From Candidatus Nomurabacteria bacterium (GTDB taxonomy: Bacteria; Patescibacteriota; Saccharimonadia; Saccharimonadales; UBA7683), in contig JACKGS010000002.1 of NCBI GenBank assembly GCA_020631865.1, positions 109,534 to 173,533 of the forward strand: a DNA stretch of 64,000 nt, written 5' to 3'. Below the pieces are notes generated by a model. It saw only the letters and a program-made list of their open reading frames with translations. It did not search any database and was not told the origin of the DNA. This document shows positions 4,208 to 42,654 of the stretch, piece after piece. The stretch's first letter is position 1. Every line of letters starts with the position of its first letter. The position numbers and the translations under genes were made by a program.

Positions 4208-4631
4208 CTACGCATACTTTGTTATTCCGATACTAGCTTGGATTATCGCTCAGGTATGCAAGATATTCATTAAAGGGATATTCGAGAAAGACTGGAACTG
4301 GAGGTATATATACAGATCTGGGGGAATGCCGAGCGCACATACTACCGTTATTATCTCTCTTTGTACTGTACTGGCCTATAGGCTAGGTACCCAGAGTCCG
4401 GAATTTGGTATTGCATGTATTCTTGCAGCAATAGTGATGTATGATGCCATGAACGTTAGGCATGCCGTAGGTGAACATAGCCAGGCTATCAGGATGATGC
4501 TGCCAAAAGTGCTAAAAGGCAAGCCAGCTCATATGATCATTCATCAGTCCAACGGTCATACTCCGGCAGAGGTTTTCGCGGGCTTCTTTATAGGGGTAAT
4601 TGTACCAGTGCTTGTGTTTATTGTTACTTAA
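4188..4631 (+). CDS. divergent PAP2 / DUF212-like membrane protein
   Basis: 147 aa with several hydrophobic segments. Motifs SGGMPSAHT and GHTPAEV are typical of the acid-phosphatase/vanadium-haloperoxidase-related family. Overlaps the gyrA end by 20 nt. Confidence 0.7.
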   Translation: MRQFLSSYAYFVIPILAWIIAQVCKIFIKGIFEKDWNWRYIYRSGGMPSAHTTVIISLCTVLAYRLGTQSPEFGIACILAAIVMYDAMNVRHAVGEHSQAIRMMLPKVLKGKPAHMIIHQSNGHTPAEVFAGFFIGVIVPVLVFIVT

Positions 4632-4655
4632 ATTACAACAAATACTATTTATCTA

Positions 4656-4684
4656 TTGACATCCAGTTAGCTTTTCCATACAAT
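4656..4684 (+). promoter_or_regulatory. sigma70-type promoter for 16S rRNA
   Basis: TTGACA (4656-4661), 17-nt spacer, TACAAT (4679-4684). About 215 nt upstream of 16S. Confidence 0.6.
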
Positions 4685-4897
4685 TGCTTGCAGTCTGTCT
4701 GATCTTTTATGCGAGATTGCGAGTAAAGTTAGTAAACTTTATTCAAGTAATCATTCTTAATCACTACAGGTAGAGGCTAGTTTAAAAACTTAGTAGTGTA
4801 ACGTCAACGTTAAATTTTTTTGATGTTTGAATATAATTTGAGATGTTAGTATTTCATTGAAGTTAGAATTGAACACTTTGATCTGTTTTACAGATTT

Positions 4898-6531
<1,634 letters not shown>

Positions 6532-6686
6532 CTAGGGAGTATTAGCCTTAACTATGAGCAATCTAGTTAAGAGCGAGGTCGGTCTTGTTGTTTTAACGGA
6601 TCTATAAAACAACTTTGTTCCAATTTTTTGGAAAAGACTAGATTCACCTTTATTCAACAGCGACGTTACACTACTAAGTCTTTAAA

Positions 6687-6717
6687 CAAAATACCACTTA
6701 GTAAGTGGTATTTTTTA
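6687..6717. terminator. bidirectional intrinsic terminator after 16S
   Basis: 9-bp stem ATACCACTT / AAGTGGTAT with a 3-nt loop. Preceded by AAAA and followed by TTTTTT. Sits directly after the 16S trailer stem. Confidence 0.65.
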
Positions 6718-6788
6718 TGCGATACACGCATTAGTTTGGTCAATTATATTTAATAATTAACCTCATTGCGGTGTAATGGTATTAGTTT

Positions 6789-7055
6789 TTATTCTTGAGA
6801 CGGGCTTATCATTTTTGTGATAGGCGAGAGTATCCAGCCGAGCACCTCGTCGTAAAATCCAAACATTACTGTAAAGCCTATGAATACTCCAATAATTGCA
6901 AAAATTTTCCAAATCAAATATGAGCTACCTGGACCCATCTTAGATTCAAAGAAAGGAAGAGGTATACTGTTTGCTACTTGATAATTTTTCATAAGAATCA
7001 AAACACTAACAACGATAATAATTAAGCCGAGTAAGATTTGTCCGAATATTCCCAT
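6789..7055 (-). CDS. small membrane protein (hypothetical)
   Basis: 88-aa ORF with two clear hydrophobic helices. Lies downstream of the two minus-strand tRNAs. No recognisable family. Confidence 0.4.
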   Translation of the reverse strand: MGIFGQILLGLIIIVVSVLILMKNYQVANSIPLPFFESKMGPGSSYLIWKIFAIIGVFIGFTVMFGFYDEVLGWILSPITKMISPSQE

Positions 7056-7148
7056 TGTTAATAGTATAACCGATATCGTATATAATTAATAATACATTTT
7101 AAAAATAATAATAACGTAGGTACGGTTAACTATGTGTCAAATTGCGGC

Positions 7149-7225
7149 TGGTGGGCGATGGTGGACTTGAACCACCGACCTCGTCATTATCAGTGACGCG
7201 CTCTAACCAACTGAGCTAAACGCCC
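7149..7225 (-). tRNA. tRNA-Ile (anticodon GAU), CCA encoded
   Basis: Reverse complement GGGCGTTTAGCTCAGTTGGTTAGAGCGCGTCACTGATAATGACGAGGTCGGTGGTTCAAGTCCACCATCGCCCACCA. Folds as a cloverleaf with anticodon loop CTGATAA and one T-T mismatch in the acceptor stem. Confidence 0.93.
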
Positions 7226-7266
7226 ACAAGCTGAAATTCGACATGTAAAAGAAAAAAATCACAGTA

Positions 7267-7343
7267 TGGTGGAGCAACAGGGACTCGAACCCTGGACCCC
7301 CGCCTTGCAAAGGCGGTGCTCTAGCCAACTGAGCTATTGCCCC
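7267..7343 (-). tRNA. tRNA-Ala (anticodon UGC), CCA encoded
   Basis: Reverse complement GGGGCAATAGCTCAGTTGGCTAGAGCACCGCCTTTGCAAGGCGGGGGTCCAGGGTTCGAGTCCCTGTTGCTCCACCA. The G3:U70 alanine identity pair is present. Confidence 0.95.
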
Positions 7344-7362
7344 ATAGGCTGTGACAGATGTT

Positions 7363-7391
7363 AGTTTAACTGATTAACAGATATTTTTCAA
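7363..7391 (-). promoter_or_regulatory. candidate promoter for tRNA-Ala/tRNA-Ile transcript
   Basis: On the minus strand: TTGAAA, 17 nt, TAAACT. Ends about 19 nt upstream of the tRNA-Ala 5' end. Confidence 0.5.
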
Positions 7392-7583
7392 CAAGATTAC
7401 ATTATAAATTAAAAAATTAGGGTAGCCTGTTAGTTGCAGGGGGTTAGTATGCACTGTGAGATGCGAATTAATGTAAAATCAACACTTACTATATTAACTG
7501 CAAAATATGATATTGTCTCAAACTCGTATCAGATGAAATATAACATAAGCGTTGTTCTAGATACATCAATATTCGATAAACTA

Positions 7584-7612
7584 TTGACCATAAACGAGGT
7601 GTTTGCTACTAT
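7584..7612 (+). promoter_or_regulatory. candidate promoter (CTATTGACC-17-TACTAT)
   Basis: TTGACC (7584-7589), 17 nt, TACTAT (7607-7612). Shares the CTATTGAC upstream context with the 16S promoter. Confidence 0.4.
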
Positions 7613-7645
7613 GTATGTACGAAGCGAATGTTTCAAGGGTTGAAA

Positions 7646-7701
7646 CCTCTGGCGATTGTATCCACCACAATTAGTGCACAATCATCAGAGGCTTTTTTAT
7701 T
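7646..7701 (+). terminator. terminator-like hairpin in the 23S upstream region
   Basis: CCTCTGGCGATTGT (7646-7659) pairs with ACAATCATCAGAGG (7678-7691), 12 of 14 positions. Followed by CTTTTTTATT. Confidence 0.4.
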
Positions 7702-7728
7702 GAAAATAATCTGTTTCGTAGAATGTAC

Positions 7729-7757
7729 TTTACAAGTAAAAATCCATCTGATACAAT
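7729..7757 (+). promoter_or_regulatory. candidate 23S-5S promoter
   Basis: TTTACA (7729-7734), 17 nt, TACAAT (7752-7757). About 200 nt upstream of 23S. Confidence 0.45.
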
Positions 7758-7956
7758 AATCAAGCTCTGGAGTTTAAATGAGAAATTGATAAGTCTGACA
7801 GATCATTCGAAGACTTAAACTAATCAATAACAGCATTTGAACTTTAGTTCACGCAAGAAATTGTATCTGGAGTTTGTAAATTAACAATTTAGTTGGTCTT
7901 TTAAATTAAATTGGACAACGGCAAGTTATTGATAATTATCAATAACTGGTCAAACC

Positions 7957-11225
<3,269 letters not shown>

Positions 11226-11230
11226 GACTA

Positions 11231-11297
11231 GATTTTGGATTATTGATTTTAGATTTTAGTTTTCTATAATCTATAATCAATGTCCAACAATCTAATC
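11231..11297 (+). repeat. heptamer-periodic hairpin in 23S trailer
   Basis: 5' arm GATTTTG GATTATT GATTTTA GATTTTA, loop TTTTC. 3' arm TATAATC TATAATC AATGTCC AACAATC. The arms pair imperfectly. Confidence 0.7.
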
Positions 11298-11449
11298 TAT
11301 GTTTGACCAGTTTTTGATGAGTATCATAATGTATATTCATGCAATTTGTTTCAATTTAATAATTTAGACCAAAACTTGCCGTCATCGTGAACTTGTTTCA
11401 GGATCCGGTATGGATGATCATCGACCAACTTCTCATTGAGCGAGAAGTG

Positions 11450-11515
11450 GACTGAAGACTGGAGACTGGAGACTGGAGAATTTATTCTTCAATCCTCAAT
11501 CTTCAATCCTTAATC
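11450..11515 (+). repeat. heptamer-periodic hairpin in 23S-5S spacer
   Basis: (GACTGAA/GACTGGA)x4, loop ATTTATT, then (TCAATCC/TCAATCT/TTAATCT)x4. By hand the arms pair with one mismatch per heptamer and G-U pairs on the + strand only. Confidence 0.75.
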
Positions 11516-11538
11516 TACTTCTTGCCTGTGGCAAGAAG

Positions 11539-11643
11539 TCGGTGCTCATAGCGCTGGGGAAACGCCTGTTCTCATTCCGAACACAGAAGCTAAGCCCAGT
11601 AGCGGCGATAATACTCTCTTAGGGGAAGGTAGCACGGCGCCGA
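11539..11643 (+). rRNA. rrf: 5S rRNA (short, about 105 nt)
   Basis: Has CCGAACACAGAAGCTAAGCCCAGTAGCGGCGAT. Helix I is TCGGTGC / GCGCCGA (one G-U). Preceded by the 9-bp hairpin CTTCTTGCC-TGT-GGCAAGAAG. Confidence 0.88.
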
Positions 11644-11653
11644 ATTATAGAAC

Positions 11654-37859: not shown

Positions 37860-37952
37860 ATGCATATTGGGCATAGTTTTTATTAACGAAGCGAGCATGA
37901 CTTAAATAAAGCATATCCACATAAGCTTTACCTAGATGATATACTAAGTTGT

Positions 37953-38219
37953 ATGAAAGTAGTTATTCTTTATAAGCCGATATCTGAACTTGCAAGCTCT
38001 GTTGAGGCCTATGCTCGTGAGTTTGAAAGAGAAACAGGTCGTCAACTCACTTTACTTAATTTTGAAAGTAAAGAAGGTATTGCGCTGGCTGGCGTGCATG
38101 ATATTGTTCGCCAGCCAGTATTGCTAGCCTTGCGGGATAGTAGTGAGCTAATTGAAGCGTGGCCTGATCGTGACAGCTGGCCGACTATGTCTCAGCTCAG
38201 CGCCTATATTAATAATTAA
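37953..38219 (+). CDS. hypothetical small protein
   Basis: 88-aa ORF with no recognisable motif. Confidence 0.5.
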   Translation: MKVVILYKPISELASSVEAYAREFERETGRQLTLLNFESKEGIALAGVHDIVRQPVLLALRDSSELIEAWPDRDSWPTMSQLSAYINN

Positions 38220-38232
38220 GTCTACTTCAACT

Positions 38233-38271
38233 TTGCAAGGATTAACCCTGCAACAGGGCTAATCCTTGCAA
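38233..38271. terminator. 18-bp hairpin (possible terminator / REP-like palindrome)
   Basis: TTGCAAGGATTAACCCTG-CAA-CAGGGCTAATCCTTGCAA with 17/18 positions paired. There is no T-run. Confidence 0.4.
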
Positions 38272-38284
38272 GAGGCGTGCGAGG

Positions 38285-38313
38285 TTGAAATTTTCAGCAA
38301 GATTATTTATTAT
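38285..38313 (+). promoter_or_regulatory. promoter of the structured leader
   Basis: TTGAAA (38285-38290), 17 nt, TATTAT (38308-38313). Confidence 0.55.
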
Positions 38314-38329
38314 AAGCATAGAAAAGCGT

Positions 38330-38495
38330 TTGAGTGGCTATCATCCACGAGCTGTGAGAAGAACGGAGAAATCTTAGTAGAACTCACCGGACCTGACCCG
38401 TAAGATCAGAAAATAAGTGCTAAAAGAATCACTTCTTTTGGAAGCCAGATGGTACCTCCCAATTTGGGATCTGGCAGACAAAGGAAGTGATTTTT
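38330..38495 (+). promoter_or_regulatory. T-box-like leader RNA (candidate tRNA-sensing riboswitch)
   Basis: - Antiterminator-like element: A1 GCCAGA (38444-49), 7-nt bulge UGGUACC (38450-56), A2 UCCC-AAUUU-GGGA, then A1' UCUGGC (38470-75).
- Upstream hairpin GUGG-CUAUCAU-CCAC has AUC-A in its loop.
- A second stem has an AGUAGAA internal loop.
- Small stem III AAGUG/CACUU.
- A 14-bp outer stem (38427-40 / 38479-92) is followed by a U-run. Confidence 0.45.
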
Positions 38496-38508
38496 ATATG
38501 GAGAAAAT

Positions 38509-39492
38509 ATGACAGAGAAGTTAAAGCAACCAAGATGGATCATTAGAGAAGCTGATTATGATGATTTACTAGATATCAGAACAATGCATGCTAAATCATG
38601 GTTAGAGACGTATCCAGATGAGGAAAACGGTGTTAGTGAAGATTGGGTTAGAGAGCGAGTTTCTGCCTGGACCACCCCTGATGGAATTCAAAAGTCCAGG
38701 GAGCATTTTAAAGATATATTTGGAAATCCGGATCATTTTTATAGAATTGCCGAGAAAGATGGAGAGATAGTTGGTTTGGTTCACGGGTCTCAATCAGATG
38801 GTTTGCAAAATTTGGAGGCACTTTACGTTGATAAGTCAGAGCATGGGAAGGGTTTAGCTCAAGATTTGATGGGTCTTGTTGATGAGTGGTTTGACGATAC
38901 ATTGCCGGTGAAGCTTGGAGTGGCAAGTTATAATGATCGTGCTATTAGATTTTATGAAAAATATGGTTTTAAAATTATACCGGATTCAAAGAGCATGTAT
39001 GCAGATAAAATTCCTATAGTTGATATGATTCGCCCGGGAGAAGGACAAAAATATCCAAATTTGAATCCAAGGCTGGAAATCAAAGATTCACCAGTTGAGG
39101 GCAGGGGAATTTTTACCAAAGTACCGATACATAAAGGCGAGAAGATTATTATTAATATTGACCCACAGCCTGTAGAAGTTCATGAATTTACAGATGTAGA
39201 ATTTGCAAAATTCAGAGAAGATTGCATAAAAAAGGGTTTGCAATGGGACTCTGTCTCACTTGGAAATGGGATGCATCGAGCGGCAATTTCTGACAGAGAT
39301 AAAAACCCAGAAAACTACGGTAATCATAGCTGTGATCCAAATTTAAGTTCTGACCATGTTGCATTACGTGATATTGAATCAGGCGAAGAATTGACGGTAG
39401 ATTATGCTGAGTTTTCAGATGTAAGCTGGTCTATGGAGTGCCATTGCGGTAGTAATAACTGTAAAGGGATCGTAAGAGGAAGGGTAAAGTGA
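38509..39492 (+). CDS. GNAT acetyltransferase - SET-domain methyltransferase fusion protein
   Basis: The N-terminal half has GNAT motifs (LEALYVDKSEHGKGLAQDLM, RAIRFYEKYGFK). The C-terminal half has SET motifs (GRGIFT, NHSCDPN, ELTVDY) plus a post-SET CHCGSNNCKG. Confidence 0.8.
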   Translation: MTEKLKQPRWIIREADYDDLLDIRTMHAKSWLETYPDEENGVSEDWVRERVSAWTTPDGIQKSREHFKDIFGNPDHFYRIAEKDGEIVGLVHGSQSDGLQNLEALYVDKSEHGKGLAQDLMGLVDEWFDDTLPVKLGVASYNDRAIRFYEKYGFKIIPDSKSMYADKIPIVDMIRPGEGQKYPNLNPRLEIKDSPVEGRGIFTKVPIHKGEKIIINIDPQPVEVHEFTDVEFAKFREDCIKKGLQWDSVSLGNGMHRAAISDRDKNPENYGNHSCDPNLSSDHVALRDIESGEELTVDYAEFSDVSWSMECHCGSNNCKGIVRGRVK

Positions 39493-39686
39493 TGAAAAAG
39501 GGTATAGTTTATATTATGACAACGGCAGTCTCTGGGTTGATTAAAATTGGCAAGACTCAAACAGCTAATTTTCCAGAAAGAATGAGGTTTCTGGAAGCAA
39601 ACGGTTACTATAATGTGGTTGGTCTGAAGAGATTTTTTGCAATAGAGTTAGATGATTATGACGATAAAGAAAGTTTAATTCAATGA
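39489..39686 (+). pseudogene. truncated T5orf172/GIY-YIG-like domain gene
   Basis: Has GIVYIMT...GLIKIGKT...RMRFL and stops after 65 aa. A +1 frame continues FNEIFNKK. The start overlaps the SET gene stop (GTGATGA). Confidence 0.5.
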
Positions 39687-39795
39687 AATCTTTAACAAAA
39701 AAGGAGTCGATACTGCGCATATTCATCGCTGCATCGACTCACTACTATCATTATAGCACTAATGGCTACTATATGTCAATACAGGAGGAAAAGAG

Positions 39796-42654
39796 ATGAA
39801 ATTTAAACACGGGACACGAAGACGAGCGTTGGAATATGAAAAAGATTGGGTAAAACGCTGGAAGGAAGATAAAACTTTTGAAAAGTCGGTAGAAAATCGA
39901 CCCGAGGATAACAAATGGGTATTTTATGATGGACCTCCATTCTTGACTGGCACACCGCATCACGGGCATTTACTTGTTTCATCTGTTAAAGATGTGATGG
40001 GTCGTTTTCATACTATGAAGGGTCAGCGTGTAGAGCGAACATGGGGCTGGGATTGTCATGGTTTGCCAGCGGAAGTGTTTGTAGAAAAGCAACTTGGTAT
40101 TAAAAACAAAAAAGAGATTGGTACTAAAATTAGTATTGAAGAATATGTTAAACAATGTCGTGCTGCAATGGTAAAAACTGGAACCGAGTGGGAAGATACT
40201 ATCGACCGACTTGGTCGTTGGGTTGAATTTGAGGGTGCCTACAAAACTATGGACAAAGAGTACATGGAAAGTGTGTGGTGGGCTTTCAAAGAAATGCATG
40301 AAAAAGGCAAGATTTACGAAGGTGAGAAAATCCTCGTTTATTGCACGAAAGATGCCACGCCAATTTCTAAATCTGAAGTTGCTATGGAAAACAGCTATCA
40401 GATGGATACTGACCCAAGTGTATTTGTTTACTTTAAGATTGAAGATGAAGACGAATATATGCTGGCTTGGACAACAACGCCGTGGACGTTGCCGGCAAAT
40501 GTAGCGGTGGCCGTAAATCCAGAAATCAACTATTCTCTTATCGAACATGGTAACAAGAGGTTTTATGTTGCTAGCGAAGCAGTGAGCCGTGTGATGCAAA
40601 ACGAGAAGAAGCAACCGCTTGAATACACAGTATTGAAGCAAATAAAAGGCGCAGAATTAGTTGGAAAACGCTATGAGCCACTGTTTGAAAACCATGGCCC
40701 TGATGCGCACCGAGTATTGGCGGCTGATTTTGTAACCGACACCGACGGTACTGGTTTGGTACATGAAGCTCCGGCTTACGGTGAAGAAGATTACGATTTG
40801 TGCAAAAAAGAGCATGTGCCAATTGTTTCCATTGTTGACGAAGACGGCCATTATACGTCTGGTCGCTGGATTGGCGAGAATATCTGGGAGGTCAATAAGG
40901 CAATCGCCAAAACACTTGTTGAAGAAGGTAGGGCGCTTAAGGTTGAGTATATTCGTCACGAATATCCGCATTGCCATCGCTGTGGAACCAAGCTTATGTA
41001 TCGCGCACACCCGAGCTGGTTTGTAGATATACAGTCGCAAAAAAAGGAAATGCTAGAAGAGAATGCCAAGACAAACTGGAATCCAGATAATCTGCGTACT
41101 GGTCGGTTCCACAACATTATTGAGCAGGCGCCAGATTGGAACATCTCTCGTGATCGCTATTGGGCAACGCCAATTCCAGTTTGGAAAGGATACCGTCAAG
41201 ATGGTACGGAGGTCGTGAAGGTTATCGGCAGTTACGATGAGTTTGAAGAGCTTACTGGCAAAAAGCTCGATGATTATCATTTGCCACAAGTTATGAATGT
41301 AACGTTTGAATGTGATGATATAGAAATGCGCCATATTGGCAAGGTGTTAGATTGTTGGTTTGAAAGTGGCTCAATGCCTTTTGCACAGTTCCATTACCCA
41401 TTTGAAAACAAAGAAAAATTTGAAAGCATGTTCCCGGCCGATTTCATTATTGAGGCGATTGACCAAACCCGTGGCTGGTTCAATAGTTTGATGGCGGTCA
41501 ATGTTGCGCTTTTTGGTCAGGCACCGTGGAAAAATCTTATTTGCACTGGGTTTGTTATGGCTGGTGATGGGAAAAAACTTAGTAAAAAACATAAAAACTA
41601 TACCGATCCAATTGAACTTATGGACAAAGTCTCGGCAGATTCTTATAGATTTACCATGCTCAGTAGTCCGCTTGCTAATGGTGATAATTATGTCATGCAA
41701 GATAAAGATATTAACGATGTGGCACGCAAACTTAGCATGGTTTGGAATATGTATGATTTCTTTACCATGTATGCTGAAGTTGATGGTTGGGAGTTTGACG
41801 GCGGGCTCGAAGATCCGCTTGAGGCGCTCGCAAATCCACTAGATATTTGGGTAGTGTCACGGTTACATCAGTTGGTTGGTGTGGTAGAGGAGCGAACTGA
41901 AGCATATGATTTACAGGGTGCACTAAAACCAATTCTGCCATTTCTAGATGATGCCTCCAATTGGTTTGTGCGACGTAGTCGCCGCCGTTTTTGGAAGTCG
42001 GAAGATGATGGCGACAAAGCTGATGCCTACAGAACATTACATTATGTGTTGGTTCGACTAGCGTACCTCTTGGCGCCGTTTACGCCGTTCCTGGCAGAAG
42101 AGTTGCACGAAAAACTTACTGGCGACAAAGAGTCAATTCATCTCAAAGATTGGCTACCAGCGGGTCGTGTAAATCAACTAGTTATGGATGAGATGGAGCA
42201 GGTGCGAGAGTATGTAAACGAAGGCTTGGGTTTACGTGCCAAGGCTCAACTTAAGGTGCGTCAACCACTGGCAAGTATTACAGTCCCAAGCATGGGTGAG
42301 CATGTTGATTTTGAACCGATTTTGATAGATGAGCTCAACGTTAAGTCAGTAAAAGTTGGCAAAGAAGTGACTATTGATGAAAATATCACTCCAGAACTAA
42401 AGCGAGAAGGCTTGATGCGTGAAGTGGTGCGTCATGTGCAGTCAGCTCGTAAAAACGCTGGTCTAAATGTTGATGATCGTATTCAGCTTTCACTTACAAC
42501 TACCGATGACCAACTTCAGGCTGCCATAACTGAGTACATCGAAACCATTAAAACCGAAACACTCGCAGTCGATATTGCGGAGGCGGAACTTGAGCATTTG
42601 TCAACCGTAAGGGTCGAGGGTACCGAACTAAAAATCTCTCTAACAAAAAACTAG
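39796..42654 (+). CDS. ileS: isoleucyl-tRNA synthetase
   Basis: HIGH motif PHHGHLL and KMSKS-like KLSKKHKN. 952 aa. SD AGGAGGAA. Confidence 0.96.
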   Translation: MKFKHGTRRRALEYEKDWVKRWKEDKTFEKSVENRPEDNKWVFYDGPPFLTGTPHHGHLLVSSVKDVMGRFHTMKGQRVERTWGWDCHGLPAEVFVEKQLGIKNKKEIGTKISIEEYVKQCRAAMVKTGTEWEDTIDRLGRWVEFEGAYKTMDKEYMESVWWAFKEMHEKGKIYEGEKILVYCTKDATPISKSEVAMENSYQMDTDPSVFVYFKIEDEDEYMLAWTTTPWTLPANVAVAVNPEINYSLIEHGNKRFYVASEAVSRVMQNEKKQPLEYTVLKQIKGAELVGKRYEPLFENHGPDAHRVLAADFVTDTDGTGLVHEAPAYGEEDYDLCKKEHVPIVSIVDEDGHYTSGRWIGENIWEVNKAIAKTLVEEGRALKVEYIRHEYPHCHRCGTKLMYRAHPSWFVDIQSQKKEMLEENAKTNWNPDNLRTGRFHNIIEQAPDWNISRDRYWATPIPVWKGYRQDGTEVVKVIGSYDEFEELTGKKLDDYHLPQVMNVTFECDDIEMRHIGKVLDCWFESGSMPFAQFHYPFENKEKFESMFPADFIIEAIDQTRGWFNSLMAVNVALFGQAPWKNLICTGFVMAGDGKKLSKKHKNYTDPIELMDKVSADSYRFTMLSSPLANGDNYVMQDKDINDVARKLSMVWNMYDFFTMYAEVDGWEFDGGLEDPLEALANPLDIWVVSRLHQLVGVVEERTEAYDLQGALKPILPFLDDASNWFVRRSRRRFWKSEDDGDKADAYRTLHYVLVRLAYLLAPFTPFLAEELHEKLTGDKESIHLKDWLPAGRVNQLVMDEMEQVREYVNEGLGLRAKAQLKVRQPLASITVPSMGEHVDFEPILIDELNVKSVKVGKEVTIDENITPELKREGLMREVVRHVQSARKNAGLNVDDRIQLSLTTTDDQLQAAITEYIETIKTETLAVDIAEAELEHLSTVRVEGTELKISLTKN

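Follow-up and report, generated by a model that had tools for sequence, protein, structure and literature searches.

Acetyltransferases of the GNAT type and SET-domain methyltransferases are both textbook families, but their combination in one chain is undescribed. Points of reference nevertheless exist for each half. AAC(6')-Ie/APH(2'')-Ia is a bifunctional fusion enzyme that modifies small molecules, and the acetyltransferases MccE and RimL detoxify aminoacyl-adenylate antibiotics; to our knowledge, no resistance enzyme uses a SET domain. T-box riboswitches occur upstream of ileS, the gene for isoleucyl-tRNA synthetase (IleRS), and the actinobacterial ileS class of these leaders has a very short Stem I. 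Among bacterial SET proteins, BurB of Burkholderia thailandensis (PDB 9l4t, 9l4v) and its homologue MSMT are compact methionine S-methyltransferases; BurB, of 172 aa, S-methylates free methionine while retaining all of the SET and post-SET motifs, including the tyrosine (PMC12542666). Here we analyze a gene at 38509..39492 of a 64,000-nucleotide stretch of Candidatus Nomurabacteria bacterium DNA (contig JACKGS010000002.1, positions 109,534 to 173,533; hereafter the window), which encodes a GNAT-SET fusion within an ileS operon.

The open reading frame (ORF) starts with ATG on the plus strand, as do all features below unless stated otherwise, and its 327-aa product (37.3 kDa, isoelectric point 5.1) is a genuine fusion of a GNAT and a SET domain, predicted to be a bifunctional transferase from its intact acetyl-CoA, S-adenosylmethionine (SAM), tyrosine, and zinc motifs. 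An earlier note, made from the letters of the window, had proposed such a single polypeptide, and both the exact ORF and the 2 domains were confirmed: Pfam Acetyltransf_1 (PF00583) matches aa 48-154 with 53.6 bits against a cut-off of 20.7, and Pfam SET (PF00856) matches aa 198-299 with 43.9 bits against 22.4. The motifs quoted in that note (LYVDKSEHGKGLAQDLM, FYEKYGFK, NHSCDPN, ELTVDY, and CHCGSNNCKG) are all present. The GNAT domain spans aa 10-175 (38536..39033), as drawn from Pfam, from model confidence and Foldseek GNAT matches (see below), and from the 65% identity over 173 aa with the stand-alone GNAT P0011, and it has full-length homology to stand-alone GNATs that precede ileS in related genomes. 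Its acetyl-CoA motif A, KSEHGKGLA (38833..38859), fits the pattern Q/R-x-x-G-x-G/A as H112-G-K-G-L-A117, with H replacing Q/R; motif B, AIRFYEKYGF, lies at 38941..38970 and contains Y149, by analogy with GNAT enzymology the likely general acid of this half. An 8-residue linker, PGEGQKYP (aa 176-183, 39034..39057), was placed from the end of P0011 and the starts of stand-alone SET proteins. It is flanked by the last GNAT strand, which is kept in stand-alone GNATs, and by the SET N-flank, which is kept in stand-alone SETs. The compact SET plus post-SET module follows (aa 184-327, 39058..39489), delimited by Pfam, by a SET-only model, by Foldseek, and by dN/dS, and it carries the GxG SAM-binding turn (G198-R-G200 in EGRGIF, 39100..39108), the NHSCDPN motif (39322..39342), the ELTVDY motif with the active-site Tyr299 (39388..39405), and the post-SET CxCxxxxC cluster of C311, C313, and C318 (39439..39462). 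With C275 of NHSC as the predicted fourth ligand, the zinc-cluster signature is complete by sequence. Across 11 fusion sequences, G113, G115, A145, Y149, and G153 are invariant in the GNAT half, as are G198, N272, H273, S274, C275, E294, D298, Y299, C311, C313, and C318 in the SET half, and these SET-half residues keep a conservation of 90% or more in the 150 nearest SET clusters.

Given that 2 adjacent genes can be joined by an assembly or frameshift error, the continuity of the junction matters. Logan contigs from 4 runs in 4 studies span 38484-39125, 38484-39711, or 38466-39800 with no gaps within the ORF and no indels at the junction. A search for the same domain order in other sequences returned 10 further protein clusters from other samples (303-335 aa, most 322-335), 52-89% identical and of identical architecture, besides 2 more distant fusions considered below, and no related locus has a separate adjacent SET gene. 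The indel-free contigs and the homologous fused clusters refute the artefact reading, to which we give virtually no credence. At least 12 studies have activated-sludge or wastewater runs that contain the locus. Its nearest reference-genome relative is a Candidatus Saccharibacteria metagenome-assembled genome (MAG), in keeping with the reduced, episymbiotic lineage surmised in the earlier note. A pattern scan of GTDB species representatives reached no intact fusion, only a remnant in one Saccharibacteria MAG and one unrelated GNAT; tblastn found no match to the fusion in phages and no full-length match in plasmids, where the 2 junction-crossing matches are a nonribosomal peptide synthetase (NRPS) with a SET domain and a stand-alone SET. 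PADLOC, applied to the fusion, the nearest SET, and the neighbours, gave no defence-system match except for a stub downstream of the fusion (see below), and neither neighbouring gene matches an RHH/DUF1778-type antitoxin domain, so that the protein does not group with the GNAT toxins of type II toxin-antitoxin systems (TacT, AtaT, ItaT). The searchable literature on SET with Saccharibacteria, with GNAT, or in fused bacterial architectures held no prior description of GNAT-SET, which agrees with the earlier suspicion of a novel architecture; it is not unique, however, considering the 2 apparently independent fusions P0140 and P0183, and the family already carries an automatic label in a public database (JGI), the generic "RimI-like".

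The AlphaFold2 model of the full-length protein has a mean predicted local distance difference test (pLDDT) score of 85.4 and a predicted template modelling score of 0.73, with aa 10-175 above a pLDDT of 90. Its best Foldseek matches are small GNATs, with a target-normalised TM score of at most 0.80 (3fnc and 3f0a, E 1e-10). As all 50 of the listed matches came from the GNAT half, the SET half (aa 183-327) was modelled alone, and this model (pLDDT 91.8) has as its top matches the SET plus post-SET domains of MLL1, ASH1L, and NSD, at TM 0.58-0.65 (MLL1 0.62-0.65, E 1e-8). By sequence, the PDB matches of the C-terminal half are the SET domains of BurB, MLL1, and ASH1L, with BurB among the two best. 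Protein N-terminal acetyltransferases (RimI, Ard1, and Naa60) are among the named proteins closest to the GNAT half, which reaches none of the NCBIfam equivalogs (rimI, TIGR01575, 34.5 bits against a cut-off of 86.4).

The earlier note had held SET proteins to be uncommon in bacteria, and this is not what metagenomes indicate: compact SET proteins matching at E<=1e-3 make up 2495 clusters at 50% identity. Two of them, P0140 (365 aa) and P0183 (328 aa), are more distant GNAT-SET fusions whose SET halves are 43% identical to each other. Since their GNAT halves do not align, these fusions are probably independent, and the GNAT-SET combination probably arose on two or three occasions at least. In the 150 nearest SET clusters, the fusion partners are ATP-grasp (4) and GNAT (3, counting P0183 at E 1.5e-4), with single instances of MFS, ABC-membrane, Kdo-transferase, SnoaL, thioesterase/hydrolase, DUF952, and HTH_31 partners. 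Related stand-alone SET genes have as neighbours class-I methyltransferases, P-loop or APH-like kinases, nucleotidyltransferase or NUDIX genes, and MerR regulators, and the P0183 gene shows translational coupling to that of a hexapeptide acetyltransferase and has a TetR regulator gene some 2 kb upstream. Moreover, an NRPS of Brevibacillus laterosporus B9 (NZ_CP011076.1; L024 29-4603, at least 1524 aa) has at its C-terminal end a BurB-like SET plus post-SET domain (…HSCDPN…MDYETTEDELYRQFECGCGASKCRKIITG). Three observations on these relatives are recorded in passing: the NZ_CP011076.1 record is unannotated at the NRPS-SET position, and a candidate small S-adenosylmethionine decarboxylase-like ORF may lie downstream of it; many relatives of 350-390 aa carry tandem SET pairs (P0038, P0054, P0057, P0058, P0066, P0075, P0077, P0084, P0120, P0123, P0147, and others); and the ATP-grasp-SET fusions include P0034, on a 4.66-Mb contig.

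Purifying selection acts on both halves, and very strongly on SET. The Nei-Gojobori method puts dN/dS at 0.3-0.6 in the GNAT half and at 0.04-0.10 in the SET half, where synonymous sites are saturated; at dN of 0.6-1.0, the GNAT half evolves about 6 times faster than the SET half at non-synonymous sites, and its identity across the fusion family is 34-39%. The dN/dS of the SET half implies that strong purifying selection has acted on it for a long time. A comparison of the window with the L003 genome sets these rates in context, with identities of 84% for the SET half, 81% for ribonucleotide reductase (RNR), 64% for IleRS, and 38% for the GNAT half. Saccharibacteria genomes are smaller than 1 Mb and genes are readily lost from them, and constraint like that of ribonucleotide reductase in such genomes means that the SET half performs an important task in the cells that retain it.

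The genomic setting ties the other half of the protein to IleRS. In the related loci the common gene order is ftsZ, nrdR, class II RNR, an ORF of 88-97 aa, a leader, variable genes, the GNAT gene with or without SET, further variable genes, and ileS, which in the window is the last gene of the operon (39796..42654); no plus-strand terminator-like site lies between the fusion and ileS. Stand-alone GNATs that are 65%, 45%, and 33% identical to the fusion sit directly upstream of ileS, translationally coupled to it by an overlap of 4-11 nt with its start, and because they occupy that slot the ancestral unit can be taken as leader-GNAT-ileS, with the GNAT as an old partner of ileS.

The leader region of the window (38285..38508) comprises a promoter-like site (38285-38313) and a leader of about 190 nt with a specifier hairpin, GUGGCU-AUC-A-UCCAC (38333-38349), an F-box-like CCGUAA (38398), and a helix A1, GCCAGA/UCUGGC, around the bulge UGGUACC (38450-38456), set on a long lower stem with a U-run (38424-38496; dG -36 kcal/mol, z -4.7); the Shine-Dalgarno sequence GGAG (38500-38503) is five bases ahead of the ATG. 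A leader of this kind is common to all 8 loci examined, including GNAT-only loci and loci with another first gene (the window; L001 4968-5291; L003 4768-5240; L004 5192-5380; L007 495-726; L011 ~4590-4855; L020 4800-5000; L022 4840-5000). Across these loci the specifier hairpin reads GUGGCU-AUC-A-NCCAC with covarying stems, its loop presenting the isoleucine codon AUC followed by a purine; the F-box-like element reads CCGUUA; the 7-nt UGGUACC bulge is invariant; A2 is variable; and helix A1 pairs at 6 of 6 positions in all 8 loci from 5 different helix sequences. Thus the leader has AUC plus a purine, a UGGN bulge between A1 and A2, and ileS downstream, and from these motifs and the covariation it looks like an isoleucine-specific T-box. 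The earlier note had placed the fusion gene under this leader. It is indeed the first gene after it, but the leader is not specific to the gene: it precedes whichever gene comes first, SET-less loci included, and hence it belongs to the ileS operon rather than to the fusion. Two other readings of this region were rejected. For a SAM or S-adenosylhomocysteine riboswitch, Rfam returned only chance miRNA and snoRNA matches. A mobile repeat had been considered for the ~50-nt element at 38411-38461, which occurs with many different metagenome flanks, but it is single-copy in the window, and the varied flanks are explained by strain-variable upstream cargo and, on the other side, by an insert of variable length (0-50 nt) at the apex of the leader hairpin. 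Three further features adjoin the operon's leader and ileS. The 88-aa ORF after RNR (37953-38271 region) has no Pfam match and is conserved in all related loci (88-97 aa); behind it lies a near-perfect 39-nt inverted repeat (38233-38271) that is without a U-run and has clustered substitutions in a strain variant. Just upstream of ileS, on the minus strand, is a perfect sigma-70-like promoter (39750-39779; TTGACA-18-TATAAT with an upstream TG, 12/12), from which antisense transcription toward the fusion and the small ORF that follows it is possible.

The fusion has a traceable origin: in one Saccharibacteria sub-lineage, a compact SET module is grafted onto the 3' end of the operon's GNAT gene. 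The nearest non-fused SET relatives are stand-alone proteins of ~150 aa, P0035 (59% identity) and P0036 (51%), and P0035 is found on low-GC contigs in a cluster of MerR, class-I methyltransferase, SET, and P-loop kinase genes that adjoins an insertion sequence element. Comparison with strain L007 locates an exchange. The 2 sequences are nucleotide-identical over 38470-39053 and then about 70% identical to the end of the ORF, with the SET halves 75% identical; the left breakpoint lies in the linker region (39054..39066), the drop beginning at codon 182. An unrelated gene follows downstream, and then ileS is again 95-98% identical (IleRS 99%). GNAT alleles are incongruent with the IleRS tree as well, and among close relatives with 91-93% identical IleRS one has a GNAT allele only 42% identical to that of the window and another the remnant described below. 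The cargo between leader and ileS, compared at window 38509-39795 and at the equivalent intervals of L001, L003, L004, L007, L010, and L011, differs between genomes whose IleRS is 91-99% identical, and includes tag, PemK-like, CdiA_C-like, second GNAT, cupin, HAD, IMPase, pyrophosphatase-like, and GDSL lipase genes. The leader-to-ileS interval is therefore a recombination and insertion hot spot in an essential operon, in which the whole SET module is swapped at the domain boundary, and passenger genes seem to be carried along in the operon of an essential aminoacyl-tRNA synthetase (aaRS). The fusion gene can also be lost: the Saccharibacteria MAG of L011 (4845-5123) holds an internally deleted fusion, its N-terminal ~20 aa (…ERMQPEDIE) joined to the last ~39 (PGEELTVDY…), the deletion apparently having arisen between two "DIE"-coding microhomologies. 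In the window, a 65-aa stub with a GIY-YIG-like N-terminus (39489..39686) overlaps the stop codon of the fusion (GTGATG). It matches positions 1-63 of the 229 in the PADLOC candidate defence protein PDC-S57 (E 4.6e-34), and as it covers only the N-terminal 63 it is a truncated remnant. Finally, P0010 (L010 292-1203) is a mosaic with a differing GNAT up to RFYEKYGF, 100% identity to window 38951-39125, and divergence thereafter; its contig is 2.1 kb long, and the allele may be a true recombinant or else a chimera of metagenome assembly.

As to what the enzyme acts on, the reading we favour, at a probability of roughly 0.45, is that the fusion is a two-activity enzyme whose substrate is a small, amino-acid-like amine with a link to IleRS physiology. 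The gene would share a transcript with ileS and be induced by uncharged tRNA-Ile; its 2 tethered active sites would share one amine-bearing substrate, with the GNAT half acetylating the amino group and the SET half methylating an N or S centre. The substrate would most likely be a small amino-acid-like molecule rather than chromatin or a host protein, with amino acids, antimetabolites, and IleRS-relevant inhibitors of the aminoacyl-adenylate type as candidates, in analogy to MccE/RimL detoxification and to bifunctional aminoglycoside-modifying enzymes. The motifs cannot decide the substrate class of the SET half, since BurB retains all of them yet methylates free methionine (PMC12542666). The comparative evidence, that is, the SET fusion partners, the neighbourhoods, BurB, and the NRPS-SET protein, leans toward a small molecule. 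A number of points weigh on the other side. BurB and MSMT aside, we know of no characterised SET enzyme other than protein lysine methyltransferases, structurally the SET half comes closest to histone methyltransferases, and the neighbours of the GNAT half include the protein N-terminal acetyltransferases named above. The relatives from which a small molecule is argued are only 35-59% identical, which makes this guilt by association, and the operon position may not report on SET function, because the other passengers are heterogeneous (lipase, tag, PemK-like, HAD, and the defence remnant). There is no specific similarity of the GNAT half to MccE or RimL, with Pfam Acetyltransf_3 at 22.7 bits against a cut-off of 25.4. 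For the regulatory part, Rfam membership of the leader is unproven, the T-box model RF00230 having no match at E<=10 in the window leader and none at gathering score in 5 related loci. Moreover, metatranscriptome RNA is limited to short contigs over 38905-39081 and 37900-39037, covering the leader, the GNAT half, and the junction; the SET half is absent from these contigs at >=93% likeness, probably as other SET alleles dominate those samples.

Many of these same points would suit a protein substrate, and we regard as possible, though with less conviction, that the fusion writes 2 marks on one of the bacterium's own cytoplasmic proteins, the GNAT half acetylating an N-terminus or lysine and the SET half methylating a lysine, and so adjusts translation in response to uncharged tRNA-Ile; the target could be EF-Tu, IleRS, a protein of the ribosome, or HU or another nucleoid protein. 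The lysine methyltransferases MLL1, ASH1L, and NSD as structural matches, the full-domain sequence matches to MLL1, and the kinship of the GNAT half with RimI, Ard1, and Naa60 all agree with this, the deep GNAT-ileS coupling fits a translation-related target, and RNR-like constraint on the SET half is what a conserved housekeeping target should impose. The difficulty is that a housekeeping role sits poorly with a gene that is absent, stand-alone, or deleted in close relatives and with GNAT alleles that are only 40% identical in genomes sharing 93% IleRS identity; in addition, the rimI equivalog score falls far short, and the partners and neighbours of related SETs resemble small-molecule enzymes. 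The earlier note had gone further and seen a candidate effector or modifier of nucleoid or ribosomal proteins. Delivery to an actinobacterial host cell or a competitor, whose proteins would be methylated and acetylated, is in line with the episymbiotic lineage, with a hypervariable, recombining locus whose toxin- and defence-like neighbours (PemK-like, CdiA_C-like, and the PDC-S57 remnant) are typical of conflict loci, and with the existence of bacterial SET effectors such as RomA/LegAS4 (bioRxiv 10.64898/2026.05.29.728679). Nevertheless, the N-terminus MTEKLKQPRWIIREADYDD is polar and without a hydrophobic stretch, and thus no signal peptide is present; Pfam finds no extra domain, neither ankyrin nor any other repeat or targeting domain, and the adjacent genes include none for secretion; the GNAT half has long been part of the ileS operon; selection on the SET half is strongly purifying rather than diversifying; and SET relatives lie near small-molecule enzymes. 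Considering also the activated-sludge habitat, the protein does not belong with the secreted SET effectors of the RomA/LegAS4 or NUE type, and we judge such a role very unlikely; nor does anything point to a role in chromatin.

The uneven evolution of the 2 halves raises the further notion that only one is catalytic, the fast-evolving GNAT serving as a regulatory or substrate-recruiting module for SET, for example by sensing acetyl-CoA. The contrast in dN/dS and the 34-39% identity of the GNAT half across the family are what this would predict, but its motif residues are invariant in 11 of 11 sequences despite that divergence and its model is very confident, so this too we consider unlikely. 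A more specific and highly speculative scheme, offered as a long shot, has the SET half monomethylate and the GNAT half then acetylate the same nitrogen to give an N-acetyl-N-methyl amine, with the tRNA-Ile-sensing leader as the switch. The product, equally conjectural, would be acetyl-methyl-lysine in a protein (IleRS, for instance) or its equivalent on a free amino acid or inhibitor. Such a "Kacme"-type double mark is so far known only from eukaryotic histone H4 (PMC13648224, PMC13131788). Repeated independent fusion of different GNATs to the SET clade is to be expected if both chemistries are obligately coupled, and, if the scheme were true, this would be the first dedicated single-chain writer of a mark of the "Kacme" type.

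Returning to the favoured small-molecule reading, with a small molecule or an IleRS inhibitor as substrate, the fusion would extend SET chemistry beyond BurB and represent a new logic of resistance or detoxification; with a protein as substrate, it would be a compact two-mark writer from a chromatin-less bacterium. That the fusion recurs is strong evidence, of the "Rosetta-stone" kind, for a functional coupling of acetylation with SET methylation on some bacterial substrate. The points of interest are this recurrence, the strong constraint on SET in a minimal genome, the domain-boundary exchange, and the deep-rooted tie between the GNAT and an ileS operon with a T-box-like leader. The locus connects an uncharacterised acetyltransferase family to isoleucyl-tRNA synthetase biology, with uncharged tRNA-Ile as a testable regulatory input, and it illustrates that an essential aaRS operon can serve as an insertion and recombination hot spot in which modules are exchanged exactly at a domain boundary.

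A separate observation concerns the rRNA region of the window (4898-11645), where the genes do not form a simple operon. The 16S gene (4898-6531) is ~100 nt longer than its model and is followed near 6696-6725 by a terminator-like hairpin, after which there is a candidate small minus-strand ORF; tRNA-Ile(GAT) and tRNA-Ala(TGC) lie on the minus strand (7149-7343) between 16S and 23S; and the plus-strand 23S gene (7962-11221) is ~335 nt longer than its model, suggesting insertions.

Set against the described systems, the SET half resembles BurB in NHSC, DY, and the CxCGxxxC post-SET, and its C-terminal 52 residues align with BurB (E 7e-8; DYA..D....ECHCG..NC...ITG/VRG). The alignment is limited to the C-terminal third (aa 273-324), however, and BurB lies outside the top 50 structural matches. 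Unlike the fusion, BurB is stand-alone, tetrameric, and encoded within a dimethylsulfoniopropionate (DMSP)/malleicyprol cluster, and with no full-length similarity and with RNR, a small ORF, a defence stub, and ileS as neighbours in place of burI/D/E-like genes of the DMSP pathway, the fusion is not a member of the BurB/MSMT group. Nor does it have the C-terminal "TGxDW..." extension that is present in most SET relatives. The best full-domain matches in both sequence and structure (E ~1e-8) are the eukaryotic histone lysine methyltransferases MLL1/KMT2A, ASH1L, and NSD, with which it has the SAM, tyrosine, and zinc motifs in common at an identity of only 20-30%; compared with these, the segment from NHSCDPN to the next strand is ~5-10 residues shorter, the pre-SET/AWS, WIN, and partner-binding regions are missing, and the gene resides in an aaRS operon of a histone-less bacterium. 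The leader is like the T-boxes of ileS in its AUC plus purine loop, its F-box-like CCGUUA, its UGGUACC bulge, and its position in an operon that ends in ileS, but unlike the canonical T-box, its A1-bulge-A2 tops the long U-run stem rather than competing with it, and here one to six passenger genes separate leader and ileS. The GNAT half has its fold and motifs A and B in common with small stand-alone bacterial GNATs (3fnc, Ta0374, PaiA, ArsN, RimI, and Ard1), from which it differs in falling below every named NCBIfam threshold and in being uniquely linked to ileS. Its sub-threshold Acetyltransf_3 score gives it no sequence-level membership with MccE and RimL; nevertheless, with these enzymes and with AAC(6')-Ie/APH(2'')-Ia the fusion would share, by analogy only, a like logic, namely 2 modifying activities per chain or a GNAT that guards an aaRS.

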